Positions 27,912-43,475 of a stretch of DNA of 64,000 nt are shown in pieces (position 1 is the stretch's first letter; each line of letters starts with the position of its first letter). The DNA is from Candidatus Marinacidobacterium sp. (GTDB lineage: Bacteria > Acidobacteriota > Vicinamibacteria > Marinacidobacterales > Marinacidobacteraceae). The stretch is from contig OZ242011.1 of NCBI GenBank assembly GCA_965204755.1, positions 3,552,001-3,616,000 of the forward strand, in the 5' to 3' direction. The position numbers and the translations under genes were made by a program. The notes below the pieces were generated by a model that did not search any database, was not told the DNA's origin, and saw only the letters and a program-made list of their open reading frames with translations.

Positions 27912-30368
27912 GTGATGCTCACGGAGAAGGCCGCCTCGTATCTGACGGCGTGGGGCTATCAGATTCTCGACAGGAGTCCTGACTTGCTCGTCGCACGAAA
28001 GAAGGACGAGGTCGGTTCCGAGAACATAAAGTGCGTCTGGATTTCGGAGCGCGAACCTGACAGTGCCGTTGAGGACAAGTTCATTGAACGTTTTCTTGAC
28101 GACGATGTCTCGACTCGCCATGCGTCCGTCGACAAGATTTTCTTGACAGAGAGTCTCAACTACTCCTCACAGTTCCGTCGAGACTGCAGTAAGGAACTAC
28201 GAGTTCGGATCTTGTCTCCCGTGAGGTTCTTCGACACCCCCTTCAACTTCGACAACGACAAGGCGGCCGCCGGTGTCGTCAAACAGCTGGCCGACGACGG
28301 GAAGCAGTGGGAGGCGTGCCGCGTACGGCAACCCTTCAGTATCGTCGCCCGTTCACTTGATGATCGGGAGCGGGAAATCCACCGTGAAAAGGATCTGGCC
28401 GAACATCTTTTCGGGCAGGTGAGGCAGCGCGCCCGGCGACCTCAGCCGACGCTATGGATAGTCGCGGCTCCAGCCGGATGTGGAAAAACTCGGCTCTTTT
28501 CGTCCCTTTTCGCGGGTGTCTACGGCGAGTTCCACAGCCACAAGAATAGGCACATGTTCTTTCCGCGCCCCTTTCCCATGGTCGCGGAACATCTTCGCAG
28601 AGCCGCTGGGCCCAACATTACGGGCCTGATTGACGCGTTCCTTAAGACGGACTTTGCGCGCCATGCCGACGAGCGCATGTTTCGGTGGATGGTTGATCAC
28701 GGTCACGCGCTGTGGATGTTGGACGGGTTGGACGAAGTGATCACGGGTGATCCATCGTTCGTGCCGTGTTTGTTGGAGTATTTCACTACTCCCGCGGCGA
28801 CACCGTTCGTTCTCATGTCCGTGCGAGATTCGGTGCTGCGTTCGAACGAGGATCTTGCGGAACTGATCGAGGGGAGTGGGGAAGCGGTCACAGTCTTCGA
28901 ACTGGAGCGGTGGGGACGACGAGAGAAGCGCCAACTGGCTTGGACGCAAGTCCATAGGCGTCTCCCGGCCCGTGGACTGAAGGACGACCGGCCGATCTTG
29001 GACCTGATGTCCTCTCTGACTCGCGACGCGGTGGCGAACGAGTTGTCGTCAACGCCGTTCTATGCGTCCATTCTGGCACAGGAGGCCGGGAGGGACGCGC
29101 GGAAGAGGTTGGAGGGCGAACTGGGGCTGCTTGACATGGCCGTGGAGGCAATGTGCAAACGGGAGTACAGGAAGGGTGGGCCGATTGACGAGAGGGTCCT
29201 GTCGCTCGCGGCGTTTCGGGAGTGGCTTGAAGAAGTGGCCGCTGAGGTCGTGGAGAGCGACGGTATGGAAACGGATCGCTTGGTGGACCTGGCCGAGTTG
29301 GTGATGGCCCTCGTAGAGGATGGCTCTGAAGCATCCGAGCACCGCAGTCCGCTGGTAGAGCAGATCAAGGCGATGCCTTTCTTGCGCATGACTCGGGCAT
29401 CGGACCGACTGGAGTTCGTCCATGAACTACTTGGCGACTACTTGGCGGGCTCCTACTACCTCCGCCGTACACGCGAGGAGACGGAACGAAAGGTGTCGCT
29501 GAGGCATCGAAGAACGGTGCAGTTGGGGCGATACGTTGGGCGAGCAGATCTCCCGAACGACTCCCTTCGCTTGCGGACGATGGCCGTCGGCTTCGGAAAG
29601 GATCGTGAAGTCCTTGTTCGTGCGCTGATCGAGGCACCGAGTTGCGCCACCGGGGAGGCGTTGCGAAACTGTCTGCGGATCATTGCCCAGATGGAATCGG
29701 GGCGCGAGATCATCGATCGAGTGAACATGTCGTTGGAGGGGCAGGATCTCTCGGGAGTTGATTTCGGGGACCTGGATCTGACGAGGATGAACTTGGCAGG
29801 CTCTGACCTGAGTTTCGCGAACTTGGAACGTGTGACCCTGCGTGAAGCGGGACTGGAATCCGTACGTCTTCGGAACACGGTGTTTGCGGGCGCGGAGAGC
29901 GGTCTCTTGGACGGAGCGAGCTTTGGCGGAGGGCAGAATTTCGTGTCCATCCAAAGCGAAGGTCGCGAGATCACCAGCTATGCGCAGTTCCGGAAATGGG
30001 CGGTGAGAGCGACGAGCGTGCCGATGGACAGCGATCGACCGTGTGGAGCGGTGCGGCAACTCGCGCACATCTTCGGAAAGTTCGTGCGACCGTCCGGCAG
30101 CGCTCGTCGAGACGAAATCGATGAGCGAGGAGTTCTTCGGGGGCGAAGAGAGAAGGGAGTGAAGAGTTATCGGCGCGTCGTGGAGGAAGTCAGGAAGTGG
30201 GGCTACCTGGAGTCGAGGCATCGCGGGCGCGTGGGTAAACCAGGTCCGGAGAAGTACGCGGAGATCGTGCGCTTTGTGATGGACTCTCGGGGCCTCTCGT
30301 CGGGGCTTCGGCAGATCGCAGACTCGGTCTGTGAGGAGCCGGGCTGCGAGCACGTGGACAGGGAGTAG
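27912..30368 (+). CDS. NACHT/STAND NTPase with pentapeptide repeats (NLR-like), foreign composition
   Basis: Walker A APAGCGKT, Walker B WMLDGLDE, TPFY, FVHELLGDYLAG winged-helix motif, pentapeptide stretch QDLSG-VDFGD-LDLTR-MNLAG-SDLSF-ANLER. Visibly lower GC than its neighbours. Confidence 0.85.
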   Translation: MMLTEKAASYLTAWGYQILDRSPDLLVARKKDEVGSENIKCVWISEREPDSAVEDKFIERFLDDDVSTRHASVDKIFLTESLNYSSQFRRDCSKELRVRILSPVRFFDTPFNFDNDKAAAGVVKQLADDGKQWEACRVRQPFSIVARSLDDREREIHREKDLAEHLFGQVRQRARRPQPTLWIVAAPAGCGKTRLFSSLFAGVYGEFHSHKNRHMFFPRPFPMVAEHLRRAAGPNITGLIDAFLKTDFARHADERMFRWMVDHGHALWMLDGLDEVITGDPSFVPCLLEYFTTPAATPFVLMSVRDSVLRSNEDLAELIEGSGEAVTVFELERWGRREKRQLAWTQVHRRLPARGLKDDRPILDLMSSLTRDAVANELSSTPFYASILAQEAGRDARKRLEGELGLLDMAVEAMCKREYRKGGPIDERVLSLAAFREWLEEVAAEVVESDGMETDRLVDLAELVMALVEDGSEASEHRSPLVEQIKAMPFLRMTRASDRLEFVHELLGDYLAGSYYLRRTREETERKVSLRHRRTVQLGRYVGRADLPNDSLRLRTMAVGFGKDREVLVRALIEAPSCATGEALRNCLRIIAQMESGREIIDRVNMSLEGQDLSGVDFGDLDLTRMNLAGSDLSFANLERVTLREAGLESVRLRNTVFAGAESGLLDGASFGGGQNFVSIQSEGREITSYAQFRKWAVRATSVPMDSDRPCGAVRQLAHIFGKFVRPSGSARRDEIDERGVLRGRREKGVKSYRRVVEEVRKWGYLESRHRGRVGKPGPEKYAEIVRFVMDSRGLSSGLRQIADSVCEEPGCEHVDRE

Positions 30369-30435: not shown

Positions 30436-32076
30436 TCAGGGGCGGAGGGGGCGGCCGGCCAAGGCGTTCGTGGCGGCGCCGCCGCGGATGGCGAAGACGC
30501 CGTTCACGAGGACCTGGACGGTTCCTTCGGAGTAACTGCGCGGGTTCTCGAAGGTGGCGGTGTCGCGCAGGCGGTCCCGGTCGAGGACGACCAGGTCGGC
30601 CTTCATTCCTTCGGCGAGGTAGCCGCGGTCGGTCAATCCCAGGAAGTCGGCGGCGAGGCCGGTCATGCTGCGGATGGCGAAGGGCAGGGAAATGATTCCC
30701 TCGTCGAGGGCGTAGCGGCGCAGTTTGCGGGTGAACGCGCCGGAGACCCGGGGGTGGCCGACCTCGGCTTCCGGAGGGATGTCGCGGCCGTCGGTGCAGG
30801 TCATCATCCAATCCTGCTGCGCCAGGAACCGGGTGTTCTCCTCGTCGTAGAGCCGGAGGTTCATCACCGAAGCGTTTCCGCCGCGCAGGACCTCCCGCGC
30901 CGCCGCCGGGGGATCGAGTCCGAGTTCGTCGGCGACTTCGGCGAGCGTCTTGCCGTTCAGTTCCGGGCGCGCCGAGGAGAAGAGGATGGCGTCGGCGCCG
31001 CCCCGGATAGCCAGCATCTCGGCGGTGGCTTCGCCGATGACCGCGGCGGTGTTCGGGTCGTCGAACCGGGCGAGCATCGCCTCCCGCCCGCCGGCGGCGG
31101 CCCAGCGCGGGACCGTGTAGGCCCGGAGGCTGGACTGGGTGGCGGTATAGACATGCTGGGCGCCGGCGACTTCGACGCCGCGCTCGCGGGCCTCTTCGAT
31201 GAGTCGGGCGCCCTCCGGGGCTCGCCCGTAGTTCCGGACGCCCTGCGCGTTGAAGTGGCTGAAGATCACCCGCAGGCCGGATTCCTCGCCGATGCGGATC
31301 GCTTCTTCGATGGACGCGAGATAGCCGAACGAGGGATAGGCCGCTCCGAGGTCCCGGTCGTGGGTGTCGTAGATGGTTCCGCCGGCGTCGGCCGCCGCCC
31401 GGCCGAGCGCGATGACCTCCTCGGTCGTCGCGTAAGTTCCGGGGACATAGAAGAGCCCGGTCGAGAACCCGAACGCGCCTTCCTCGACGCCTCGGCGCAC
31501 GAGGGCCTCCATCTCCCCGAGTTCCTCCCCGGTGGGCGCGCGGTCCTCTTCGCCCATCACCCGGCGGCGAACCGCTCCGTGGCCCACATAGGTCAGGGCG
31601 TTCACGCCGATTCCGCGCGCTTCCCAACCGGCGAGCGTCGCCGCGACTTCCGGGGAACCCCCGCCGTCCACGCCGAGCACCACGGTGGTGATGCCCTGGT
31701 GGAGGAAGGGCAGCGCCTCCTTGGCCCAGTCGTCCCCGACCTGCGAATGGGAGTGCATGTCGATGAATCCGGGCGCGACGAGCAACCCGGAGACATCCAG
31801 CGTCTCCTCGCCGGTGATCCCGGCGGCATCGGCGTCCCCGACGAAGACGATCTCGTCCCCGGAGACCCCGATGTCCGCGCGCACCGGTTCGTTCCCGGAA
31901 CCATCCAACACGGTTCCGCCGGCGAGCAGCAGTTCGACCGACTGCCCGCCGCAACCGGAAGCGGCGGCCAGCGCGAGCGCGGCGCCGGCGACGAAAAGGG
32001 AATGCGGCAGCGTCCCGAACCGCCGGGCCGCCGCCCGCGCGGCGGAGCGGGCGCGGCCCTCGGACGAAGACCTCAC
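30436..32076 (-). CDS. N-acyl-D-amino-acid deacylase family amidohydrolase (lipoprotein)
   Basis: APGFIDMHSH, GFSTGLFY.PG, THDRD, ISH-like FSH, CTDG, HPR..G.F and ADLVVLD motifs; lipobox ASGC. Start position uncertain. Confidence 0.88.
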   Translation of the reverse strand: MRSSSEGRARSAARAAARRFGTLPHSLFVAGAALALAAASGCGGQSVELLLAGGTVLDGSGNEPVRADIGVSGDEIVFVGDADAAGITGEETLDVSGLLVAPGFIDMHSHSQVGDDWAKEALPFLHQGITTVVLGVDGGGSPEVAATLAGWEARGIGVNALTYVGHGAVRRRVMGEEDRAPTGEELGEMEALVRRGVEEGAFGFSTGLFYVPGTYATTEEVIALGRAAADAGGTIYDTHDRDLGAAYPSFGYLASIEEAIRIGEESGLRVIFSHFNAQGVRNYGRAPEGARLIEEARERGVEVAGAQHVYTATQSSLRAYTVPRWAAAGGREAMLARFDDPNTAAVIGEATAEMLAIRGGADAILFSSARPELNGKTLAEVADELGLDPPAAAREVLRGGNASVMNLRLYDEENTRFLAQQDWMMTCTDGRDIPPEAEVGHPRVSGAFTRKLRRYALDEGIISLPFAIRSMTGLAADFLGLTDRGYLAEGMKADLVVLDRDRLRDTATFENPRSYSEGTVQVLVNGVFAIRGGAATNALAGRPLRP

Positions 32077-32104
32077 GCCGCGCGCTGCGACTCGGCGCGC
32101 AGGG

Positions 32105-32533
32105 TCAGTCCTCTTCGGCGCCCGGATAGACCCGTTCTCCCTCGTAGTCCCTCAGACCGCAAAAACCGGTGACTTCGAATCCGTTGGACTGGAGCATCTC
32201 CGCGGCACGCGCGGCTCTTCCTCCGCCCTGTCAAGCGGTGAGGATGGGAACGCCGGTCGGCAGTTCCCCCATCCGGGCCTCCAGTTCGTCGATCGGGATG
32301 TGGACGAACCCGTCGAGGGTTCCGTGTTCGGCGAGTTCTTCGGGGGTCCTCACATCGAGGAGCAGCGCGCCGCCGGCGAGCGCGGCGTCGATGTCCGCCG
32401 CTTCGACGCGCGGAGCGGGCGCCGGTTCCGGCTCTGCCGCGGGCTCGCTCGACGACGACTCTTCGCCACCGCCCCCGCCGCAGGCGAGGGAGACGCCGAC
32501 GAGGCCGGCGGCGAGGGGAAGAAGACTGCGCAT
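32105..32533 (-). CDS. Selenocysteine-containing rhodanese, lipoprotein (UGA at 32231-32233 read as Sec)
   Basis: MRSLLPLAAGLVGVSLAC lipobox, then LLDVR..E...G...HIP.DEL...PILTA-UGA-QGGGRAARAAEMLQSNGFEVTGFCGLRDY..., with the true stop at 32105-32107. The UGA aligns to the catalytic Cys of the rhodanese CxxGxR loop. Confidence 0.85.
32200..32215 (-). promoter_or_regulatory. Putative bacterial SECIS hairpin
   Basis: GCCGCGCGUGCCGCGG at +16..+31 after the UGA: stem CCGCG/CGCGG, loop CGUGC containing GU. Confidence 0.7.
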
Positions 32534-32597
32534 GGGGAAACCCTCCCGGGTGAGACTCGACTCGTGTTTCGGCCGAACGGCGTCGCGGCGCCGCGGG

Positions 32598-32942
32598 TTA
32601 TTCCGGCAGCGGCCGGTACTCGCGGCGGCCGCGGTAACTCTTGAGGCCGCAGAAACCGCGCACCTCGAAACCGGCCCGCTCCAGGATCGCCGCGGCACGC
32701 GCGGCCCGGGGGCCGACCATTCAAGTGGTCAGGATCGGGCGGTCCCGCGGGATCTCGTCGGCGCGCTCGGTCAACTCGTCGAGACCGATGTGGAGCGCGC
32801 CCGGGATCGTTCCCGATTCGGCGAGTTCCACCGCCTGCCGCACATCCAGCAGGACGACTTCGCCGCCCGCCAACTGGCCGTCTATCTCGTCGGCCGGAAC
32901 GAAGGGGGCGCGGGTTCCGAACATGCGGCCGACGATCGCCAT
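32598..32942 (-). CDS. Selenocysteine-containing rhodanese, no signal peptide (UGA at 32721-32723 read as Sec)
   Basis: MAIVGRMFG...VLLDVRQAVE...GTIPGALHIGLDEL...RDRPILTT-UGA-MVGPRAARAAAILERAGFEVRGFCGLKSY..., with the true stop TAA at 32598-32600. Alternative start at 32924. Confidence 0.85.
32690..32705 (-). promoter_or_regulatory. Putative bacterial SECIS hairpin
   Basis: The same 16-mer GCCGCGCGUGCCGCGG at the same +16..+31 offset from the UGA as in the paralog. Confidence 0.7.
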
Positions 32943-32997
32943 CGCGCGCCGCCCGTCCGGTCTCTCGCGCCCGCCCTCTCTCTCGTCCGGTTCCGCC

Positions 32998-34173
32998 CTA
33001 GGCGGCCATCTTCTGCGCGGAGTCGAGCACCGCCGCGAACGCCTTGGCGGCGCGCTGCATCTCGTCCATCGTCCCGATGGAGATGCGGCAACGCGTCCAC
33101 AGTGGCGGGAACGGCCGTCCCACGCGGACGCCTTCGGCGGCGCAGGCCGACTGGAACTGCTCCACCGGCATCCCCACATCCGCGAAGATGAAGTTCGTCT
33201 GCGCGTCGGTGGCCGAGTAGCCGCGGTCGCGGAAGAACTTCAGGATGAAGTCGCGCGCCTCGGCGTTCCGCTTCTTCTCGTTGGGGAGGAAGTCCGGGTC
33301 CTTCCGGTCGCGGTCGAGCGCCGCGTTGGCCGCCACCAGCGAGAGCGTGCTCACCGTGTTCCCCATGTGGAACTCGCGCAGGTGGGCGATGGTGTCCTCG
33401 TGGGCGATGGCGTAGCCGACGCGGAGGCCGGCCATGCCGTAGGCCTTCGAGAAGGTGCGCGCCACGATCACCCGCGGGTTGTCGAGCGCCAGCGGGATCA
33501 TCGTCTCGTGGCCGGGCGTCGTCACATAGTCGATGTACGCCTCGTCCACGAGGATGCGGAGGTCCTTCTCCGTATCGAGCGCCCGGTTCAGGAAGTCCCG
33601 CCCATCGGTCGGGTCCACCAGCGTCGCCACCGGGTTGTTCGGGTTGCAGAAGAAGAGCATCCCGCTGCCCTTGACTGCGTGGAGCGTCTGGTCGAGGTCC
33701 ATCTTGAGTTCGGAAGTCAGCGGAACCGCCTTCGTCCGATACCCCATGAGCGCGGCGTAGCCGAAGCACTCTTCGTAGGTGGGGAGGGAGCCCACCAGCG
33801 CCTTCTCGGCGCTTGCGTACTGGTGGGTGACATTCACCAGGATCTGCGTCGAGCCGGCGCCGATGAGGACATTGCCCGGCTTCACGCCCCACTTCTCGGC
33901 GATGGCTTCCTGCATCGGGCCGACGAAGCGGAACGGGTACCGGCCGGCGATCGTCCCCTCGGGGCCGATGACGGCGTCCACGGCGTCCATCACCGCTTCA
34001 CCGGGGCCGAGCGAGTTCTCGTTGTTGGCGAGGTTGATCGCGTCTTCGGGCGCGATGCCCATCTCGGCGGCGAAAGCGACCTGCTCGCGCAGGCGGGAGC
34101 GGACCAGGGTCGCCGCGTAGAGGCCGGCGGCGCCGGCGGAAGCGCGGTTCAGGAAACTGCGGCGGGAAAACAT
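32998..34173 (-). CDS. Tat-exported PLP-dependent aminotransferase class I/II (HisC-like)
   Basis: SRRSFL twin-arginine motif; NENSLGP, CNPNNP, DEAY and RTFSKAYGMAGLRVGY motifs. Confidence 0.9.
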   Translation of the reverse strand: MFSRRSFLNRASAGAAGLYAATLVRSRLREQVAFAAEMGIAPEDAINLANNENSLGPGEAVMDAVDAVIGPEGTIAGRYPFRFVGPMQEAIAEKWGVKPGNVLIGAGSTQILVNVTHQYASAEKALVGSLPTYEECFGYAALMGYRTKAVPLTSELKMDLDQTLHAVKGSGMLFFCNPNNPVATLVDPTDGRDFLNRALDTEKDLRILVDEAYIDYVTTPGHETMIPLALDNPRVIVARTFSKAYGMAGLRVGYAIAHEDTIAHLREFHMGNTVSTLSLVAANAALDRDRKDPDFLPNEKKRNAEARDFILKFFRDRGYSATDAQTNFIFADVGMPVEQFQSACAAEGVRVGRPFPPLWTRCRISIGTMDEMQRAAKAFAAVLDSAQKMAA

Positions 34174-34251
34174 GGTCGTTCCTCCTCGGGGGCGAACGGG
34201 ACGGCGCGGTGTCCGGGGCGTCGGCGGGAAAGCGGGAAAGGGGAGCGGGCC

Positions 34252-35448
34252 TTACTGCTGCTGGTTGTCGGTGGTCGCCAGCCCGAGCACCTCCGCGAAG
34301 ACCGCGGTCGCGCGCTGCATCTCCTCGAGCGTGCCGATGGAGATCCGGGCGTGGCTGTTCTCGTAGGGCGGGAAGTCCCGGCCCACCATGATGCCCTTCT
34401 CGGCGCAGGCCTCGCGGAAGGACTTGGCGCTGCGGCCGATGTCCACGAAGATGAAGTTCGTCTGGCTGGGCACCGGGTCGAGGCCGTTGCTCGAGAAGAA
34501 GTCCAGCGTGAACTGCCGGGCGGCGTCGTTCCGCTTCACTTCGTTCCGGATGTAGTCCGGATCCTCGAGCGAGCCCATCGCCGCGGCGATGGAGAGGATC
34601 GAGGTCCCGAAGGTGAGCGCCAGCGGCGCGAGCCGGGCGATCGTGTCCTTCTGGCCGTAGGCGTAACCGACCCTGAGACCGGCCATGCCGTACGCCTTCG
34701 AGAAGGTGCGGCCCACGAACACATCGCGGTACTTCATGGCGAGGCCGGCGCCGGTCTCGAACGACTTGTCGGTCACATAGTCGTAGTAGGCCTCGTCGAG
34801 CAGGATCGCCGTGTAGGGCGACTCCTTCTTCACGAAGTCCACGAAGTCGGTCACATCGGCGAGGCTGTGGATGGTGCCGGTGGGGTTGTTCGGGTTGCAG
34901 AGGAAGACGAGCCCGGCGCCCATCGCGGCCCCGGCCATCTTGTCCAGGTCGAGGCCCAAACTCCCGGTGTTCGGGACCGCCTTGACCGGCGCGCCGAAGT
35001 ACTCGGCGGCGCGCTTCGGGCTCTCGAAGGAGCAGGTGGCGGTGACCAGCGGGCGGCCCTTGCCGGTGTACACCCGCACGGCGTTCCGGAGGATCTCGGA
35101 GGAGCCGGGGGCGAGCACCACATTCTCGGCGCCGCCGCCGTACATCTCCCCGAGGCGCTTCCGCAGGTCGTTCCCGCTGATGCGGGCGTTCATCGGGTAG
35201 CGCATGATGGAGCCGTACTCGCCCCGGAGCGCCGCCACCGCCGCCGGGCCGGGGCCGAGCGGGTTCTCGTTGCTGCTGATGCGCACCTCGTCCGCCTCGG
35301 GGGGCGGCACGAACACCGGGGCCTCGCGGAAGCCGTTCGCGGCCTCCCAGGCTTCCCGTCCGCGGGCGCCGATGGCGTGGAGCGCCGCCGGGGAAACGGC
35401 GGGGGCGCCGGCGGCCAGACTCAGAAAGCGGCGGCGGTTCGATTTCAT
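34252..35448 (-). CDS. Tat-exported PLP-dependent aminotransferase class I/II (HisC-like), paralog
   Basis: NRRRFL twin-arginine motif; SNENPLGP, CNPNNPTG, DEAY and RTFSKAYGMAGLRVGY motifs. Confidence 0.9.
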   Translation of the reverse strand: MKSNRRRFLSLAAGAPAVSPAALHAIGARGREAWEAANGFREAPVFVPPPEADEVRISSNENPLGPGPAAVAALRGEYGSIMRYPMNARISGNDLRKRLGEMYGGGAENVVLAPGSSEILRNAVRVYTGKGRPLVTATCSFESPKRAAEYFGAPVKAVPNTGSLGLDLDKMAGAAMGAGLVFLCNPNNPTGTIHSLADVTDFVDFVKKESPYTAILLDEAYYDYVTDKSFETGAGLAMKYRDVFVGRTFSKAYGMAGLRVGYAYGQKDTIARLAPLALTFGTSILSIAAAMGSLEDPDYIRNEVKRNDAARQFTLDFFSSNGLDPVPSQTNFIFVDIGRSAKSFREACAEKGIMVGRDFPPYENSHARISIGTLEEMQRATAVFAEVLGLATTDNQQQ

Positions 35449-35706
35449 CGGGTTTCTCCCAAGTTCAGTGGGCCGGATCGGTGCGATCGGTCAGAGGGGA
35501 TTTCGGTTCCCGGAGAGCGGCCCGGACGGAAGTTCCGACCCGGCGGTCGGGGCGGGAACGCCCGCTCCCGGGCCCGTCCTTCCGGGCGCTCCGTGGGGCT
35601 GAGGCCGAAGGGCAAGAGTAGCGGGAGGCGGGCAGCCGCCGCAACCGCGAAGGGGCGCTCCCGCGGGGGCGGCGAGGCGGCGGCGGGGGGCTCTTCCCAC
35701 GGGCGG

Positions 35707-36240
35707 TCAGTGCATCATCAGCGGCGCGACCAGGGCGGTGGAGCCCCAGTGCATCCGCAGCGAGCCGTTCATGCCGTCGTCGGCGGAGACCACGCTGATC
35801 GTGAACATTTCGGCGGACTCGGCCGCCTCTTCCACGGTGAGCGGGACGCCGAACAGGTCCTTCTCCGGGTCGCGCGCCATCCCCGACTGCCCGGTCTCGC
35901 CGTTCACGAGGAGGGTCCAACCCTCGTCCGTCTTCTCCGCGAAGAGGGTGTAGGAACCGGCCTCGACGCTCTTGCCGCCGAACCACAACTGGCCTTCGGT
36001 CATGAGGGTGGTGGCGTCCTCCGAGCCGAGCCGCCAGACCATGCCGGACTGGGCCTGGCCGAGCATGTCCCGCCCCTTCAGGCTGGGGCGGCCGTAGGTG
36101 ACGCTGATCTTCTTCCCGGCGATGGTCGCTTCCGCGGTGCCGCGGGGGTTGTGGGCGGCGGCGAGAGCGGCGCCGAAGGCGAGCAGCAGCGCCGGAAGGG
36201 TGAGCGCGCGGTGGAGCGCGCGGCGGCGGGTGGTGGTCAT
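35707..36240 (-). CDS. Exported DUF2911 domain protein
   Basis: Signal peptide; ISVTYGRPSLKGR, VWRLG...AT, AGSYTLF and MHWG motifs. Start ATG at 36240. Confidence 0.85.
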   Translation of the reverse strand: MTTTRRRALHRALTLPALLLAFGAALAAAHNPRGTAEATIAGKKISVTYGRPSLKGRDMLGQAQSGMVWRLGSEDATTLMTEGQLWFGGKSVEAGSYTLFAEKTDEGWTLLVNGETGQSGMARDPEKDLFGVPLTVEEAAESAEMFTISVVSADDGMNGSLRMHWGSTALVAPLMMH

Positions 36241-36513: not shown

Positions 36514-38844
36514 ATGACTCGACGCCGCCTCCCTTCGCTCCCCGCTCCCCCGGATCCCGCGATTCCGGTCGTTCCCGGTCGTTTGGTTCCCGGTCGTTTG
36601 GTCCCCGGTCGTTCGCGGGCGCGCCCGGGGCGGCGGCTCGCCCCGGCGGCGGTCGGGGTCTCGGCCCTGCTCGTCCTCGCCGCCCCGGATGCGGCGCTCG
36701 CCGCGTCCGCCGGCGCCGCTGCCCGAGCAACAGCGGAGGACGACCGACTGGAGCGCCTGCCGGAGGAACACCGCCTCTGGCTCGAGGAAGAGGTCGTCTA
36801 CATCATCACGCCGCCGGAGCGGGAGGTCTTCCTGGGCCTCGAGAGCCACGAGGAGCGCGAGTACTTCATCGAGGCGTTCTGGGATCGGCGCGACCCGTTC
36901 CCGGCGACGCCGGAGAACGAGTTCCGGGACGAGCACTACGAGCGCATCGCCTACGCGAACCGCTTCCTGGGTCGGGACGCCCCCCGGCCCGGCTGGCAGA
37001 CCGACCGGGGCCGCCACTGGATCATCCTGGGGGAGCCCCGCACCCGGGAAGTCTTCGAGGGCCGGAACGAAGTGGTCTCCATGGACCTCTGGATCTACGA
37101 CGGCGACACCTCGCTGGGCCTGCCGCCCCGCTTCAACCTGCTGTTCTTCAAGGAGAACGATGTGGGCGAGTACCAGTTGTACGACCCGTGGGGCGACGGG
37201 CCGGACGCGCTGGTGGCCCGGGGGGAACTGCTGCGGAACCGGCAGCACCAGGCCGTGGACCTCCTCGAGACGGTCTCGATGGATGTGGCGCGGGCGAGTC
37301 TGGTGGTGGACCTGACCGACCCCCACGCCGACTTCCTCTCGGCCACGAACACCATTTCGCCGCAGTTGCAGACGGTGCGGCCCTCCATGAGCACCGGCCG
37401 GAACTTCCTGGACATCTCCAACTCGCCGCACCGCCGGGTGGACCTGGACGAGATCGAGGGGTACCTGCGCTACGGCGACCGGGTCACTTCCGAGTACTCG
37501 TTCCGCTTCGTGGAGAGCCGGTCGGACTTCCGGGTGCTCCTCGGCCCCCGGAACACGCCGTTCGTCCACTACAGCGTCGCGCTCGCCCCGAAGGACTTCA
37601 CGCTCGAACTCGACGAACGGGAGAACCTCTACCGGACCACCCTCGAGGTGGAGACGGAGGTGCGGACCGCGGAGGGCCAACTGGTGGCCATCCAGCGGAA
37701 CGAGCCGGCGATCGAACTCACCGAGAGCCAGCACCAGGCCGCCGGCGGCAGTCCGTTCGCCTACCGGGACAATCTCCCGCTGATTCCCGGCGACTACGAA
37801 GTGAGCGTCCTGCTCCGGAACCGGGCCACCCGGCAATACACGGTCGCCACCGCCGAGGTGCGCGTCCCCGGCACGGGCGGGGCCGAGCCGGGCCTCGCCG
37901 ATCCGGTGCTCGCCTACCGGCTCGACGAGTCTTCCGCCGCCGCGGCCTCGCCCGGAGCGCCGCGTTTCGGGACCTTCGAGTTCGGCGGCGTTGTCCTCGA
38001 ACCCTCGATCGGCGGCGTCTTCTCCGCGTCGGAGACCCTCACCGCGGCGGTGCAGGCGGTGAACCCGCCGCCGGACGCCCGGGTCCGCCTGCGGATCGCC
38101 CCGGAGCAACTGCCGGACTCGGCGTCGGCGGACGAGACCGCGGAACCGGAGGTCGGCCCGCCCGTCGCCGAGGAGACGGCCCCCGCGGGCGCCGCGGCCT
38201 CCCCCCCGATCGTGGAATTCCCGCTCGCCGGGATCCCCGCGGGACGCTACCGGCTGACCGCGGAGTTGCTCGACGCGGAGGGCGCGGTCACCGCCCGACG
38301 GGACGCGCCGTTCTCGATCTCCCCCCGGGCGGCGGTGGCCCGTCCGGCGTTCATCGTCCGCCGTTCCTTCGGCGCTCACATCCCCGGCCTGCTGGCCCTG
38401 ACCCTCGGCGAACAGTTCATGGCCCGGGGACGGATCCACGAGGCGACGGTGGCGCTCCGGGAGGCCTCGGTGAATCCGGACCTGCCGATGGCCCGCTGGA
38501 AATTGGCGAGCGCGCTCCTGTTCGCGCGGGACGCCGACGGCGCGCTCGACCTCCTGCTGCCGCTCGAAGCGGAGCACCCGAACGAGATCGAGGTCGTCGA
38601 GGGCGTGGGCTTCGGCTACTACCTGCGCCGGGAGTGCGCCGAAGCGCTGCCCCGCCTCGAACACGCGCTGACCCTCCGCGCCCCGGACATCTCGCTGCTC
38701 AACGCGGTGGGCGACTGCCTGGAAGAGGAAGGCGAGACCGCCCGGGCGGAGGAGATCTTCACCCGGTCCCTCGAGTTGAACCCGGAGCAGACGGCGGTGG
38801 CGGACCGGCTGGCCGGACTCCGCGAGCCCGAGGGGCGTCGGTAG
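36514..38844 (+). CDS. GWxTD domain protein with C-terminal TPRs
   Basis: WLEEEVVYIIT..E...F, FW.RRDP.P.TPENEF and PGWQTDRGR...LGEP motifs; TPR-like C-terminus. Confidence 0.9.
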   Translation: MTRRRLPSLPAPPDPAIPVVPGRLVPGRLVPGRSRARPGRRLAPAAVGVSALLVLAAPDAALAASAGAAARATAEDDRLERLPEEHRLWLEEEVVYIITPPEREVFLGLESHEEREYFIEAFWDRRDPFPATPENEFRDEHYERIAYANRFLGRDAPRPGWQTDRGRHWIILGEPRTREVFEGRNEVVSMDLWIYDGDTSLGLPPRFNLLFFKENDVGEYQLYDPWGDGPDALVARGELLRNRQHQAVDLLETVSMDVARASLVVDLTDPHADFLSATNTISPQLQTVRPSMSTGRNFLDISNSPHRRVDLDEIEGYLRYGDRVTSEYSFRFVESRSDFRVLLGPRNTPFVHYSVALAPKDFTLELDERENLYRTTLEVETEVRTAEGQLVAIQRNEPAIELTESQHQAAGGSPFAYRDNLPLIPGDYEVSVLLRNRATRQYTVATAEVRVPGTGGAEPGLADPVLAYRLDESSAAAASPGAPRFGTFEFGGVVLEPSIGGVFSASETLTAAVQAVNPPPDARVRLRIAPEQLPDSASADETAEPEVGPPVAEETAPAGAAASPPIVEFPLAGIPAGRYRLTAELLDAEGAVTARRDAPFSISPRAAVARPAFIVRRSFGAHIPGLLALTLGEQFMARGRIHEATVALREASVNPDLPMARWKLASALLFARDADGALDLLLPLEAEHPNEIEVVEGVGFGYYLRRECAEALPRLEHALTLRAPDISLLNAVGDCLEEEGETARAEEIFTRSLELNPEQTAVADRLAGLREPEGRR

Positions 38845-38883: not shown

Positions 38884-41100
38884 TCAGCGGGCGAGGTAGC
38901 GGGCCCGGAATTTCTCGATTGCCGGCAGCAGGGGCTGGCGGTCGTGGAGGGCGTCGGCGAACAGGTCGCCCAGCCGCGCCAGCCGGTCGGGCATCGAGCG
39001 GATGGTGAACTGCTCGGGGCTGAGGTCGCCGTTCAACTCGTCCCAGTCCAGCGGCGCGGAGACCGAGGCGGCCGGCACCGGGCGGGCGGCGTAGGCGGGC
39101 ACCACCGTCTGCCCGCGCCGGTTCTGCAGGAAATCCAGGTACACCCGGCGGCCCCGGCGGGACACCACCCGCTCCACCGTCGCGATCTCCGGGTGCTCGG
39201 CGGCGACATGGGTGGAGACCGCCTCGCAGAACTGCCGCACCAGGTCGTAGGGGTAGATCGGCTCCAGCGGCACCTGGACATGGAGCCCGGTGGCCCCGGA
39301 GGTCTTGACCAGCGGGCGGAGCCCGATCCCCCGCAGCACCTTCCCGAAGGCGCGGGCGAGCCGCGCGACATCGGAGAAGGGACCGCCGCCCGGGTCGAGG
39401 TCGAAGACCGCCCAGTCCGGCCGGTCGAGCCGGCCCCGGATGGAGAGCCACGGGTGGATATCGATGCTGCCCAGGTTGGCGGCGAACAGCAGGGCCGAGG
39501 GGTCGTTGCAGATCAGGAACCGGATCGTCTCCCCGCGCGACCCGGAGGCGATCTCCTCGACTTCGACCCAGTCCGGCGTGTGTTCGGGCAGGTCCTTCTG
39601 GTAGAAGGCCTTGCCGCCCACGCCGTCCGGCATCCGCAGCAGGTGCGCCGGCCGCTCGTGGAGGTAGGGCAGCATGTGCTCCGCCACCCGGTCGTAGTAG
39701 CGGATCAGGTCGCCCTTGGTGTAGCCGGACTCCGGCCAGAAGACCTTGTCGAGGTTGGTGAGCCGGATGGGCCGGGCGGCGCTCCGCTCGGCCCGGCCCC
39801 GCGCGAGCCCGGCGAGCACATGGTCGTCGTCCGCCGGCGCCGCTTCCGGCCGGGCGGGAATCCGCGCGGTGTCGGGCGGGCGGGTTTCCGGGGCCGACCG
39901 GCGCCGGCCCCCGGCCGGTTCGAGCGCCCCCTCGCCATCCGCCGGGGGTACGCCCGGATACGCGCCGTCCACCCGCCTCGCGATCGTCCCGGAGAGCCCG
40001 GCCGCCTCGCAGGCGGCGTGGAACTCTTCGCCCCGAACCCCCACATGCTCCCCGAAAAGGAGGCGGGATGATTGCGCAATCATGCTGCGCAACAGTTGCT
40101 TCCGTTCGAGCAGCGGGACCCGGCGGATGTCCCAGTCGTCGTAGCGGAGGAGGTCGAAGAGGTAGAGCGAGACCGCGATCGAGTCGTCTCCCCCGAGCCG
40201 CGCGGCGAGTCGGTCGGCGGAAGGGCGTTCCGACCGGTCGGTCGCCACCAGGATCCCGTAGGCGAGGAACGCTTCGGCGCGGATCCCCTCGGCCTCGGCC
40301 CGGAGTTCGGGCAGGCCGGGCAGGGGGCCGCCGCCGGCCGCGGGAGCGAGGCGGGGGCCGTCTTCGCCGCGCTCCAGGAAGACCGGGAGGCCCTCCATCT
40401 CCGGCTCGAAGAGGAAGTTGCGGTCGGAGAACGGCGCGGCCTCCCCTTCCGGCTCGGGCGGGATCGGCGGGGGATCGCCGGTCCAGGGCTCGGCTTCCGC
40501 CAGGGCGAAGAACGGCTGCCGGTCGGACTCCTTCCGGGCGTAGCGGTCGCGTCCCTTGAACAGGAGCCACTCGTCGGCGCCCCGCTTCGTCTTGACCAGG
40601 TGCCAGGCGCCGCGCAACTTGCGGCCGCGAAGTCGGACCACCAGTTTCCCGGCCTCGACGCCGGCGGCGCCGCCGTCGCCTTCCCCTTCGGTGATCTCGT
40701 AGGCGCCCCGATCCCAGATGACCATCGTCCCGCCGCCGTACTCCCCGGCGGGAATCACCCCGTGGAAGTCGGTGTAGGCGAGCGGGTGGTCCTCGGTGCG
40801 GACGGCGAGTTTCTTGACCTCCGGGTCGTAGGTGAACCCGCGCGGCACCGCCCAGGACTTGAGGACGCCGCCGATCTCCAGGCGCAGGTCGTAGTGGAGC
40901 CTTCGCGCCTCGTGCCGATGCACGACGAACGCTCGCGCCGGAGGGGACGGCGCCGCCGCGTCCCCCGGCGGCGGCTCGGGAGTCCGGTCGAACCGCCGCT
41001 TGGCGCCGTAGGCATCTATGGACTTCCGCTCGGGCCGCTCCCCCGGCCCGGCGGGCGGGGCCGGCGCTTCCGGGGAGGGTCTCGATCGGGAATCGGGCAT
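38884..41100 (-). CDS. ligD: LigD-like protein: 3'-phosphoesterase, degenerate ligase domain and primase-polymerase domain
   Basis: Phosphoesterase: FVVHRHEARRLHYDLRLE..GVLKSWAVP, EDHP, YGGG..WD.G. Polymerase: TNLDKV, FDLDP, KTSG..GLH, YLDFLQN, VSAPL.W. Ligase motifs are degenerate. Confidence 0.85.
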   Translation of the reverse strand: MPDSRSRPSPEAPAPPAGPGERPERKSIDAYGAKRRFDRTPEPPPGDAAAPSPPARAFVVHRHEARRLHYDLRLEIGGVLKSWAVPRGFTYDPEVKKLAVRTEDHPLAYTDFHGVIPAGEYGGGTMVIWDRGAYEITEGEGDGGAAGVEAGKLVVRLRGRKLRGAWHLVKTKRGADEWLLFKGRDRYARKESDRQPFFALAEAEPWTGDPPPIPPEPEGEAAPFSDRNFLFEPEMEGLPVFLERGEDGPRLAPAAGGGPLPGLPELRAEAEGIRAEAFLAYGILVATDRSERPSADRLAARLGGDDSIAVSLYLFDLLRYDDWDIRRVPLLERKQLLRSMIAQSSRLLFGEHVGVRGEEFHAACEAAGLSGTIARRVDGAYPGVPPADGEGALEPAGGRRRSAPETRPPDTARIPARPEAAPADDDHVLAGLARGRAERSAARPIRLTNLDKVFWPESGYTKGDLIRYYDRVAEHMLPYLHERPAHLLRMPDGVGGKAFYQKDLPEHTPDWVEVEEIASGSRGETIRFLICNDPSALLFAANLGSIDIHPWLSIRGRLDRPDWAVFDLDPGGGPFSDVARLARAFGKVLRGIGLRPLVKTSGATGLHVQVPLEPIYPYDLVRQFCEAVSTHVAAEHPEIATVERVVSRRGRRVYLDFLQNRRGQTVVPAYAARPVPAASVSAPLDWDELNGDLSPEQFTIRSMPDRLARLGDLFADALHDRQPLLPAIEKFRARYLAR

Positions 41101-41243
41101 GGCGGAAGGCGCCCGCCGGCGCCGGCCTCCCGGTCGGCAGCGGGCCTCGCCAATTCTGACGGCCGACCCCGGCCGGGGCCGGTGGCACAATCGGCGGCCG
41201 CGCGACGGGCGGGAAGACCGCCCGCGCCGAGGAGGGCCCGACC

Positions 41244-43475
41244 GTGCCGACCATGAACGCCGAACCACGAGGAAAGAGCCGGGGCGCCGCCCCGCCGACC
41301 CGGAGCGCGGTCGGGAACCGCCGGAGAGCCCGGCGCCGGGCGACCGTCATCGCGGGCGGGGCCGCGCTCGCCGCGCTGCTCGCCGCCGGGTGCGGCTCGG
41401 AGGAGGCCGCCCCGGAACTCACTCTGGAACAGATCCTGGCCATCCGCCACCCGGCGAGTCCGGTCTGGAGCCCCGACGGCGAGCGGATCACCTTCGTCTG
41501 GGACCGCAACCAGGAGATGGACCTCTACTCGGTCGAGCCCGGCGCCGGCGAGGCGCCCCGCCCGCTCACCCGCTGGGGCGAGTCCTACGAGGAGATCGGC
41601 GGCCTCTTCTGGGGCCCGGCCGGCGAGTTTCTCCACTTCGTCCGGAACGGCGCGCTCTACCGGATGAACCCGGAGCAGCCGGGCACCCTCGAGCGCGTCT
41701 TCGACGAGGAGCCGGGCGGCGAGTCGGGCTACTCGCCCTCCCCCGACCGCGCGCGGATCGCCTTCCTCCGCGGCGGCGACCTGCATGTCCGCGACCTCGA
41801 CTCGCCCGCCGAGTTCCCGCTCACGGGTACGCCGGACCTCCGGGAGGGAGCGGCCGTCTGGTCGCCGGACGGGCGGTTCGTGGCCTACACCGTCGCCTCG
41901 ACCGAAGCCATCGAGAAGACCCCGGAAGTCTCCGGGGCCAAACTGGCCTTCCGCAGCCGACGGTCCACCCCGCCCGACCTTTGGGCGGCGCCGGTGATCC
42001 GCCGGGGCGTCCCGCGCCGGATCGCCGCCGGCGAGAACTTCCAGTCCTCCCCCGGATGGCTCGACGCCGCGCGGCTGGTCTTCCTCGAAGTCAGCGCCGA
42101 CTACCGCGAGCGCTCCGTCCGGGTGGCCGACCTCCGCGACGGCTCGGTGCGGACCCTGTCCAGCACCCGCGACCCGAAGTGGTGGAGCCTCACCTTCCTC
42201 GGCGCGGAGCCCCGCCCCTCGCCGGACGGGAAGTGGGTGGCGTTCGTGGACGACGCCTCCGGCTGGGACCGGTTGATGGTCGTCTCCGTGGACGACGGCT
42301 CGGAGACCGCCCTCACCGACGACGGCGCCGAGGTCCGCCGCTACGCCTGGTCACCCGACGGCCGCTACCTGGCGTGGGACGCGAATCCGGAGCACCCCGG
42401 CCGCCGCCAACTGTTCGTCGTCGAAACCGCCTCGCTGCCGGACGCCGCGCCCCGCGCCCTCACTTCGGGCCCGGGCGCGAACACCCAGCCCGCCGCCCGC
42501 ACCGGCTTCCGCCTCTCCGCGGAGTTCGGCGGCTTCTCCCCGGACGGCAGCCGGATCGTTTTCCAGCGCACCGGCCCCCGCGCCCCGGCCGACCTCTACA
42601 CGGTGGCGGTGGACGGCGGCGGCGAGCCGGTGCGCCTCACGAATTCGCTGCCGGAGGGACTCGACCCGGCCCTGTTCACCGAGGGCGAGTTCCTGCGCTT
42701 CCCGGCGCGCGACGGCGGCGAAGTGCCCGGCTACCTGTTCACGCCGGAGGGACTCGACCGCTCCCGGAAGCACCCGGCCATCGTGTGGGTCCACGGCGAC
42801 GGCATCGCCCAGAACTACGAAGGCTGGCATGTCCGCCGGGACTACGCGGCGTACCACTCGTTCCACCAGTTGCTCCTCCGGGACGGTTATGTGGTGCTCA
42901 TGCCGGACTACCGGGGTAGCGTCGGCTACGGGCGCGACTTCCGGCAGCAGTCCTACCGAGATGTCGGCGGCGGCGACTACCAGGATGTGGCGGCGGCGGG
43001 GGACTACCTGAAGACCCTCGACTTCGTGGACCCCGAGCGCGTCGGCGTCTGGGGACTCAGTTACGGCGGCTTCATGACCATGCAGGCGCTCACCCTCGAC
43101 CCGACGCTCTTCGCCGCCGGGGTGAATGTCGCCGGGGTCGGCGACTACCGGCTCTGGTTCCAGGACCCCGGGGGGAGATGGGTGGTCAGCCGGATGGGGA
43201 CTCCGGAGGAGAACCCGGAGGTGTACGACCTCGCCGCTCCCGCCGACCGGGTCGAGGCGATCGAGCGGCCGCTCCTCATGATGCACGGCACTTCGGATGT
43301 GAATGTTCCCTACTTCGAGTCCGTCCACCTTGCCGACCGCCTGCTCCGCGCCGGCAAGGACTTCGAGTTCGTCACCTACCCGGGCGAGTTCCACTACTTC
43401 CACCGCGAACATGTCCTCCGGGACGCCTGGAAGCGCGTGCGCCGATTCTTCGGGGAGCACTTGGCCGCGCGGTAG
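41244..43475 (+). CDS. S9 family (prolyl oligopeptidase/dipeptidyl peptidase-like) lipoprotein
   Basis: WSPDG propeller repeats; YRGS.GYG, GLSYGG nucleophile motif, HGTSD.NV and YPGEFH; lipobox AAGC. True start may be downstream. Confidence 0.9.
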   Translation: MPTMNAEPRGKSRGAAPPTRSAVGNRRRARRRATVIAGGAALAALLAAGCGSEEAAPELTLEQILAIRHPASPVWSPDGERITFVWDRNQEMDLYSVEPGAGEAPRPLTRWGESYEEIGGLFWGPAGEFLHFVRNGALYRMNPEQPGTLERVFDEEPGGESGYSPSPDRARIAFLRGGDLHVRDLDSPAEFPLTGTPDLREGAAVWSPDGRFVAYTVASTEAIEKTPEVSGAKLAFRSRRSTPPDLWAAPVIRRGVPRRIAAGENFQSSPGWLDAARLVFLEVSADYRERSVRVADLRDGSVRTLSSTRDPKWWSLTFLGAEPRPSPDGKWVAFVDDASGWDRLMVVSVDDGSETALTDDGAEVRRYAWSPDGRYLAWDANPEHPGRRQLFVVETASLPDAAPRALTSGPGANTQPAARTGFRLSAEFGGFSPDGSRIVFQRTGPRAPADLYTVAVDGGGEPVRLTNSLPEGLDPALFTEGEFLRFPARDGGEVPGYLFTPEGLDRSRKHPAIVWVHGDGIAQNYEGWHVRRDYAAYHSFHQLLLRDGYVVLMPDYRGSVGYGRDFRQQSYRDVGGGDYQDVAAAGDYLKTLDFVDPERVGVWGLSYGGFMTMQALTLDPTLFAAGVNVAGVGDYRLWFQDPGGRWVVSRMGTPEENPEVYDLAAPADRVEAIERPLLMMHGTSDVNVPYFESVHLADRLLRAGKDFEFVTYPGEFHYFHREHVLRDAWKRVRRFFGEHLAAR

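Follow-up and report, generated by a model that had tools for sequence, protein, structure and literature searches.

Rhodanese selenoproteins were first reported as a family from the Sargasso Sea metagenome, in a prediction of 2005 (PMC1088965). A 2026 selenoproteome review lists five rhodanese forms, two of which carry a UxxG motif ('form 2', 'form 4', rhodanese-related sulfurtransferase), and the passages of that review drawn on here mention neither a pairing nor a localisation of the UxxG forms (PMC13188914). The transaminase PtaA of Pseudomonas fluorescens is transported to the periplasm together with its cofactor by the twin-arginine translocation (Tat) pathway, and, in the part of that work used here, PtaA homologues are described in species that make no pyoverdine (PMC6206403). 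Relatives of both systems lie side by side in the marine acidobacterium Candidatus Marinacidobacterium sp. (Vicinamibacteria; assembly GCA_965204755.1), within the 64,000 nucleotides analysed in this study (contig OZ242011.1, positions 3,552,001 to 3,616,000), hereafter the window. The block comprises a DUF2911 gene, two aminotransferase genes (AT1 and AT2), two rhodanese genes (RhdA and RhdB), and an amidohydrolase gene (Amd). The initial annotation, made from the DNA alone, had grouped the last five into one candidate operon and envelope pathway for amino acids and sulfur or selenium. We consider it likely that the block is instead a lineage-specific juxtaposition of three independent modules, each of a described kind.

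RhdA and RhdB resemble the UxxG forms in harboring the rhodanese domain (PF00581), predicted selenocysteine (Sec) in place of the catalytic Cys, the motifs UMVG and UQGG, and a candidate bacterial selenocysteine insertion sequence (bSECIS) with an apical-loop G directly downstream. They were assigned by motif, not to form 2 or form 4 in particular. They differ from the described forms by a conserved tandem of one predicted cytoplasmic and one predicted lipoprotein copy, and by a second Cys in a GFCGL motif. Like the rhodanese_LYCAU family (NF041203, 'form 3', CxU), they are small rhodanese-type selenoproteins by prediction; however, membership in NF041203 was rejected, as RhdA scored 25.1 bits against a cut-off of 115, RhdB had no match, and the motif is U-x-x-G, not C-x-U.

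AT1 and AT2 are, like PtaA, HisC-like fold-type I pyridoxal phosphate (PLP) transaminases with a Tat signal. They differ from PtaA in scoring below its cut-off and in forming two paralogues in a conserved tandem with the DUF2911 gene. No pyoverdine context was seen around AT1 and AT2. On their sequences, the aminotransferases are PtaA-like, yet not PtaA. The rhodaneses and the aminotransferases are thus each of a known kind, and as a set the five genes of the proposed pathway are not conserved.

Organization of the gene block

The source genome consists of one contig of 3.98 Mb, and the window has a G+C content of about 70%. The DUF2911 gene, AT1, AT2, RhdA, RhdB, and Amd are six minus-strand genes within 30436-36240. 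The gaps between the five genes from AT1 to Amd are, in gene order, 78, 55, 64, and 28 bp. The initial annotation had described five co-directional genes with gaps under 80 bp and four products with export signals, two of the Tat type and two lipoboxes, and both descriptions held: 28-78 bp separate neighbouring genes among the five, which share the minus strand, and the four signals were recognized on reading the translations. The five-gene order also occurs on contigs from three other studies (X3, X4, X11), and among the variants listed for contigs from other studies, none falls on either of the two in-frame TGA codons of the rhodanese genes.

Linkage across relatives

We compared gene neighbourhoods in 24 other genomes of the family (25 with the source genome, G000) and in 80 named loci around AT2 homologues. 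Neighbouring genes were stop-to-stop open reading frames (ORFs) checked by Pfam or NCBIfam, and small or family-less genes may be missed. The clustering of the 4510 ORFs of the 80 loci was polluted by antisense shadow ORFs; only Pfam-confirmed clusters were used. The unpublished genomes G089 and G033 enter denominators only, and no statement rests on either.

All five genes were adjacent and co-directional only in the source genome and its congener G001, that is, in 2 of the 25 family genomes. Among the 80 named loci, the five-gene order was found once, in the record of the same congener. Each of the 24 other family genomes had the AT1-AT2 tandem, with the two genes side by side in 23 and a contig end between them in one (G017), and the tandem also occurs in the sister family. 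The rhodanese pair was found in 23 of the 24, always as a tight pair with RhdB directly downstream of RhdA; no pair was found in G020, the assembly of which is 89% complete and comprises 210 contigs.

The position of the rhodanese pair relative to the aminotransferases varied. It was convergent to the aminotransferase pair in 13 of the 24 genomes, at 0.9-1.5 kb in three genomes of genus g4 and at 3.9-5.6 kb in ten genomes of genus g2, and therefore no shared transcript is possible in those 13. Four genomes (G005, G006, G010, and G015) had the rhodanese pair 42-577 kb from the aminotransferases, and in G013, an assembly of two contigs, the rhodanese pair and the aminotransferases were on different ones. 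These distance counts leave aside four fragmented assemblies (G002, G003, G007, and G016). The genes preceding the rhodanese pair also differed between genera: a PD40 protein gene in g2 and, in both g4 and g6, rpmB together with an M14 peptidase gene. An Amd orthologue (63-84% identity) was present in 22 family genomes, and in all ten genomes with both genes on one contig, it was 166 kb to 1.9 Mb from AT2. Conservation of the gene neighbourhood, which the initial annotation had itself named as a check on its proposal, was therefore not found: the five genes are not kept together in relatives outside the genus, and neither the single operon nor the single pathway was borne out.

In g2, the interval between the PD40 gene and AT2 holds RhdA, RhdB, senA, senB, and an M24 peptidase. 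The source genus has there instead the low-G+C P-loop/pentapeptide gene described below, followed by Amd and the inverted rhodanese pair. Judging from this gene order, the PD40-AT2 interval is a rearrangement spot.

The selenoneine genes of g2 adjoin the Sec-rhodanese pair, as at L083:7109-9375 in genome G022; senA scored 475.1 bits (cut-off 420) and senB 398.8 bits (cut-off 300). The senA gene was convergent to RhdB within ~300 bp in 12 of the 12 g2 genomes having both. In the source genome, senA and senB were both without a match over the cut-off, and in other families senA was far from the rhodanese.

Rhodaneses as predicted selenoproteins

Standard ORF calling ends both rhodanese genes at an in-frame TGA. 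With TGA read as U, RhdA (32598-32942, minus strand) encodes 114 residues and matches PF00581 with 46.8 bits, and RhdB (32105-32533, minus strand) encodes 142 residues, matches with 37.1 bits, and has a lipoprotein-type signal and a low-complexity linker. Both pass the PF00581 cut-off of 22.2 bits as single domains. The putative Sec codons are at 32721-32723 in RhdA (residue 74) and at 32231-32233 in RhdB (residue 101), both on the minus strand. Each TGA replaces the catalytic Cys, as seen on alignment to the Cys in the rhodanese domain of PDB 3icr (coenzyme A-disulfide reductase). The resulting active-site loops, U-M-V-G-P-R and U-Q-G-G-G-R, have six residues of the form C/U-x4-R, and a six-residue loop marks rhodanese sulfurtransferases rather than phosphatases.

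The source genome contains the machinery for selenocysteine, with selA (474.6 bits), selB (286 bits, or 308 with the C-terminal part), selD (245.8 bits), and tRNA-Sec (71.8 bits), all over the cut-off. In the 41 related genomes searched, the best 57 RhdA matches each had exactly one in-frame TGA, with similarity reaching residue 108-114 of 114, and every match at E <= 1.4e-23 had the TGA. Among 301 genomes sampled across the phylum, the best 23 matches each had one TGA; weaker matches were mixed TGA and Cys forms, the Cys forms being in larger multidomain proteins. The peptide after U was strongly conserved (U-xGGGR-AARAA-LL...GFCGL). From these comparisons, we read both TGAs as selenocysteine codons, and selenium incorporation itself is what we infer. 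The 'Sec-rhodaneses' of the initial annotation are thus appropriately named in the selenocysteine sense, given a TGA at the catalytic-Cys codon, a conserved read-through frame, the Sec machinery, and a candidate SECIS.

A second Cys is located about 24 residues after Sec in the GFCGL motif (residue 98 in RhdA and residue 125 in RhdB). It is kept in all RhdB-type sequences listed, distant ones included, and many RhdA orthologues have Ser at this position (GFSGL). This Cys may be a resolving cysteine for an Se-S bond.

SECIS-like hairpins

A SECIS-like hairpin follows each TGA. In RhdA (32689..32705, minus strand), it has a 6-bp stem, GCCGCG/CGCGGC, and the loop CGUGC; in RhdB (32200..32214, minus strand), a 5-bp stem, CCGCG/CGCGG, carries the same loop in the same register. 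Both genes therefore share CCGCG-CGUGC-CGCGG, with a loop that begins 21 nt after the UGA, and the predicted folds have energies of -11.5 kcal/mol (RhdA) and -7.8 kcal/mol (RhdB). The bSECIS model, as stated in the part of the review used here, comprises a loop of 3-9 nt, a stem of 4-16 bp, a G in the first two loop positions, a distance of 16-37 nt from the UGA, and a minimum free energy <= -7.5 kcal/mol (PMC13188914). Both hairpins satisfy this model, with a 5-nt loop that has G at its second and U at its third position, a stem of 5-6 bp, the 21-nt spacing, and the energies given above.

For the hairpin alignment, four false matches of the Sec-motif regular expression (L055, L061, L074, and L081) were removed by eye, and L128 (from the unpublished genome G089) was excluded from this alignment and from later counts. 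Across the 66 distinct sequences aligned, 97.6% of the cells of the five-pair stem were standard pairs. Compensatory changes were found in two of the five pairs (C-G to U-A, G-U, or G-C in one; G-C to A-U or C-G in the other). Third-codon identity was 0.90 within the hairpin vs 0.52 at flanking third positions. Additionally, the Arg codon supplying the loop U was CGT in 55 of 62 sequences; in AT1, AT2, and Amd together, CGT accounted for 1 of the 102 codons for Arg. The frozen synonymous sites are a stronger argument for a SECIS than the pairing.

Three results weigh against the hairpin as a SECIS. The stability did not exceed that of shuffles (z-scores between -0.10 and -0.94; 35-81 of 200 shuffles were equally stable), most hairpin pairs were invariant across the sequences, and a candidate lower stem (alignment columns 8-12 with 38-42) was rejected, as only 49.7% of its cells were paired. 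RNAalifold retained only four upper-stem pairs. Since shuffled G+C-rich sequence folds just as stably, the case for a SECIS rests on conservation.

Localisation of the rhodaneses

Export signals were read directly from the translations, and the lipobox pattern was a home-made regular expression. The source genome has tatC (206.5 bits) and lgt (130 bits). RhdB carries the lipobox ...VGVSLAC-GGGG. The RhdA-type orthologues were without a signal in 24 of 24 cases, and in 23 of the 24 RhdB-type orthologues of the family, a low-complexity linker follows a hydrophobic stretch with [AGS]C at its end. The lipobox pattern was present in 42 of 55 B-type sequences; distant single-copy relatives have a lipobox or an ordinary signal peptide. 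RhdA is accordingly predicted to be cytoplasmic and RhdB to be lipid-anchored in the periplasm, and the earlier suggestion of rhodaneses on either side of the membrane stands as a prediction.

Tandem Tat-type aminotransferases

AT1 (34252-35448, minus strand) encodes 398 residues and matches PF00155 (Aminotran_1_2) with 150.1 bits; AT2 (32998-34173, minus strand) encodes 391 residues and matches the same family with 151.7 bits. The two are paralogues with 42% identity. AT1 begins with MKSNRRRFLSLAAG and contains a twin-arginine signal (MKSNRRRFLSL, motif NRRRFLSL), and AT2 begins with MFSRRSFLNRASAG and contains another (MFSRRSFLN, motif SRRSFLN). The pattern RR-x-[hydrophobic]2 was present at the N-terminus of 131 of the 134 aminotransferase copies in the 80 related loci. 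The identification of two Tat-type PLP aminotransferases was therefore confirmed by PF00155 together with the twin-arginine motifs.

The subfamily models tested were all matched below their cut-offs. The best-scoring was PRK09105 of NCBIfam (NF006580), with 265.7 bits for AT1 and 249.2 for AT2 against a cut-off of 444; its alignment starts at residue 2-3 of the aminotransferases and so spans the signal region. The hisC model (TIGR01141) gave 225.3 and 187.5 bits (cut-off 276.55) and the PtaA model (NF051461) 216.8 and 220.2 bits (cut-off 500), for AT1 and AT2, respectively. The best solved relative of AT2 was 3ly1, a putative histidinol-phosphate aminotransferase (2.8e-39), and for both aminotransferases the nearest solved structures were of HisC-like enzymes. 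The Tat signal argues against a cytoplasmic role of the aminotransferases in histidine synthesis.

Two adjacent aminotransferase copies were found in 56 of the 80 loci, in Vicinamibacteria and beyond. The closest loci were from Candidatus Marinacidobacterium, Vicinamibacteria, and Acidobacteriota metagenome-assembled genomes (MAGs), and distant single copies were found in Gemmatimonadota, Woeseiaceae, Pseudohongiellaceae, Glaciecola, and Bacteroidota MAGs. The DUF2911 gene (35707..36240, minus strand) is located 258 bp upstream of AT1 on the same strand; its product matches PF11138 with 113.1 bits and has an N-terminal signal-like stretch. A DUF2911 gene is upstream of AT1 in the family loci and does not adjoin the aminotransferase pair outside the family. 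With the aminotransferase pair, it makes up a module kept in 24 of the 24 other family genomes.

Further genes recur near the Tat aminotransferases. Pyrroloquinoline quinone (PQQ)-dependent dehydrogenases (PF01011, up to 771 bits) were found in 10 of the 80 loci, in several phyla (for example, L174, L177, L183, L188, L191, L193, L196, and L203), and NHL/SGL-repeat proteins in 9 of the 80. These neighbours hint at periplasmic alcohol, aldehyde, or amine chemistry. In 8 of the 80 loci, from Vicinamibacterales, the co-directional gene after AT2 encodes a twin-arginine protein of ~290 residues that matched neither Pfam nor NCBIfam (L189:8158-9105 and L200:8156-9097, among others).

Amidohydrolase

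Amd (30436-32076, minus strand) encodes 546 residues, matches PF07969 (Amidohydro_3) with 82.9 bits, and has the lipobox ...LALAAASGC-GGQ. Among solved structures, the matches were 9g5m, an unnamed amidohydrolase (2.3e-61), D-aminoacylase 1m7j (7.2e-59), and N-acyl-D-Glu deacylase 3gip (1.5e-52); the carbohydrate de-N-acetylase 9kb3 is also among its solved relatives. The match to PRK09061 of NCBIfam was below the cut-off (182.8 against 340). Amd resembles the D-aminoacylase of Alcaligenes (1m7j, 1rk6) in the Amidohydro_3 fold, the HxH motif, and aligned His and Asp positions. It differs in a lipoprotein signal and in an Asp at the position aligned to the Cys of 'GNCG', which we take to be a zinc ligand in D-aminoacylase. 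The initial designation as a D-aminoacylase can be kept in the form of a D-aminoacylase-family lipoprotein.

Six paralogues at E<=1e-40, Amd included, were found in the source genome, and up to 14 in relatives; Amd is one member of an expanded family. Some related D-aminoacylase-family copies have an in-frame TGA or TAG within the match. Amd also has a long n-region with an RRF motif before the lipobox (…AARRFGTLPHSLFVAGAALALAAASGC) and could be a Tat-dependent lipoprotein. The N-termini of Amd orthologues align only from residue 14-39 onward.

Proposed mechanism and alternative explanations

A juxtaposition of three independent modules is, in our judgement, probably the correct explanation of the block. 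In the first module, DUF2911-AT1-AT2, the aminotransferases would fold around their cofactor in the cytoplasm, be exported by the Tat pathway like PtaA, and transaminate a periplasmic amino or keto compound. In the second, RhdA-RhdB, the UGA would be recoded by SelB and tRNA-Sec at the hairpin with its loop 21 nt downstream. RhdA would remain cytoplasmic, RhdB would be a lipid-anchored periplasmic protein, and each would most likely carry sulfane sulfur as an Se-S adduct on its U-x-x-G-x-R loop. The third module would be Amd, as one of several D-aminoacylase-family lipoprotein hydrolases.

Some observations count against such independence. The intergenic gaps are without a terminator-like site, all four minus-strand sites being inside genes. 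The five genes may be co-transcribed in the source genus, and a new operon can acquire a joint function. The order shared by the contigs of three other studies indicates that it is stable in the population, the exported hydrolases that repeatedly follow the aminotransferase pair in relatives leave room for a link between the two, and the relatives are not independent samples. A scan for sigma-70 promoters gave 0 sites, with 0.2 expected, and is uninformative for this phylum.

A partial coupling would make the Tat aminotransferase pair and an adjoining exported amide or peptide hydrolase, here Amd, a periplasmic unit for release and then transamination, with the rhodanese pair as an unrelated insertion. 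In its favour, a signal-bearing M24 peptidase is directly downstream of AT2 on the same strand in g2 (8 of the 80 loci), a Tat-signal Amidohydro_2 protein follows AT2 in the sister family (8 of the 80), with a lipoprotein Amidohydro_3 nearby (8 loci), and the family-less Tat-signal protein follows AT2 in Vicinamibacterales (8 loci). However, these hydrolases represent four families that are not related to one another, and Amd has no orthologue among them (no match at 1e-6 save a 40% fragment in L162); in relatives, the true Amd orthologue lies far from AT2. Elsewhere, PQQ dehydrogenases and NHL proteins are neighbours just as often (10 and 9 of 80 loci); therefore, the hydrolase pattern may merely reflect islands of periplasmic enzymes. 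The recurrence of exported hydrolases after AT2 lends weak residual support to the hydrolase-transaminase link only, and we regard the partial coupling as unlikely.

RhdA and RhdB could also form a two-compartment relay of sulfane sulfur or selenium that serves whichever sulfur or selenium enzymes adjoin it: those of senA and senB in g2, and the aminotransferases and Amd, newly joined to it in one transcription unit, in the source genus. This we consider very unlikely.

Still less probable is the single envelope pathway, in which amino acids would be released by the deacylase, Cys or Sec would be turned by the aminotransferases into a keto acid resembling 3-mercapto- or 3-seleno-pyruvate, and the sulfane sulfur or selenium would pass to the Sec-rhodaneses on either side of the membrane. 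The co-directional genes with short gaps and no intergenic terminator-like site, the order common to G001 and the contigs of three other studies, and the export signals on four of the five products are all consistent with it. However, the order is confined to 2 of the 25 family genomes. The rhodanese pair is convergent in 13, and in five more it is either 42-577 kb distant or carried by another contig. In each of the ten genomes that have the Amd orthologue and AT2 on one contig, at least 166 kb separate the two. Without a signal, RhdA cannot directly meet a periplasmic product.

The chemistry raises further objections. The route from Cys to 3-mercaptopyruvate uses an AspC-type transaminase and a two-domain 3-mercaptopyruvate sulfurtransferase (3-MST), whereas AT1 and AT2 score as HisC/PtaA-like, not AspC-like, and the rhodaneses have a single domain with U-x-x-G-x-R, not the two domains and motif of the 3-MST type. 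D-aminoacylases release D-amino acids, which fold-type I transaminases, being enzymes of L-substrates, do not normally accept. The block resembles the cysteine/3-mercaptopyruvate/persulfide route (with SseA) in placing an aminotransferase near a rhodanese-fold protein; it differs in the aminotransferase subfamily, the single-domain rhodaneses, the separate predicted compartments, and a linkage that is not conserved. On these points, 3-mercaptopyruvate chemistry fits the genes poorly.

Finally, it is scarcely credible that the TGAs are true stops and the rhodanese genes truncated pseudogenes or fragments with a downstream frame open by chance in G+C-rich DNA: standard ORF calling does end both genes there, RhdB also has TGA as its real stop, and the hairpin energy is not better than that of shuffles, but the TGA is at the same codon in the best 57 matches (41 genomes), with similarity continuing to residue 108-114, and likewise in the best 23 (301 genomes), a fragment ending before the catalytic loop would be without an active site, the Sec machinery is complete, and synonymous sites are frozen exactly over the hairpin.

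Neighbouring genes in the window

Downstream of Amd, at 27912-30368 on the plus strand, there is an 818-residue gene with a P-loop-like motif and pentapeptide repeats, in a stretch of 59% G+C within a genome of ~70% G+C. Contigs of other samples diverge from the window right at the Amd stop, at ~30436-30472. This gene looks like a recently acquired, strain-variable insertion. On the other side of the block, a LigD-type protein with primase-polymerase and phosphoesterase domains and no ligase-domain Pfam match at 1e-5 is encoded at 38884-41268 on the minus strand, adjoined by a gene for a GWxTD/TPR protein at 36514-38844 on the plus strand. Both genes are syntenic with the aminotransferase module across the family.

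Significance of the findings

As gene callers cut both rhodaneses at the Sec codon, two conserved predicted selenoproteins, one of them a predicted exported lipoprotein, would be missed or shortened. The block is also a caution, since a tight and plausible co-directional operon dissolves into three modules on comparison with ~40 relatives. The widespread tandem of Tat transaminases offers a practical entry to PLP chemistry in the periplasm, for which pyoverdine tailoring is the example known to date. If the paired Sec-rhodaneses do move sulfur or selenium across compartments, this would be the first function for a long-predicted, uncharacterised family of rhodanese selenoproteins.

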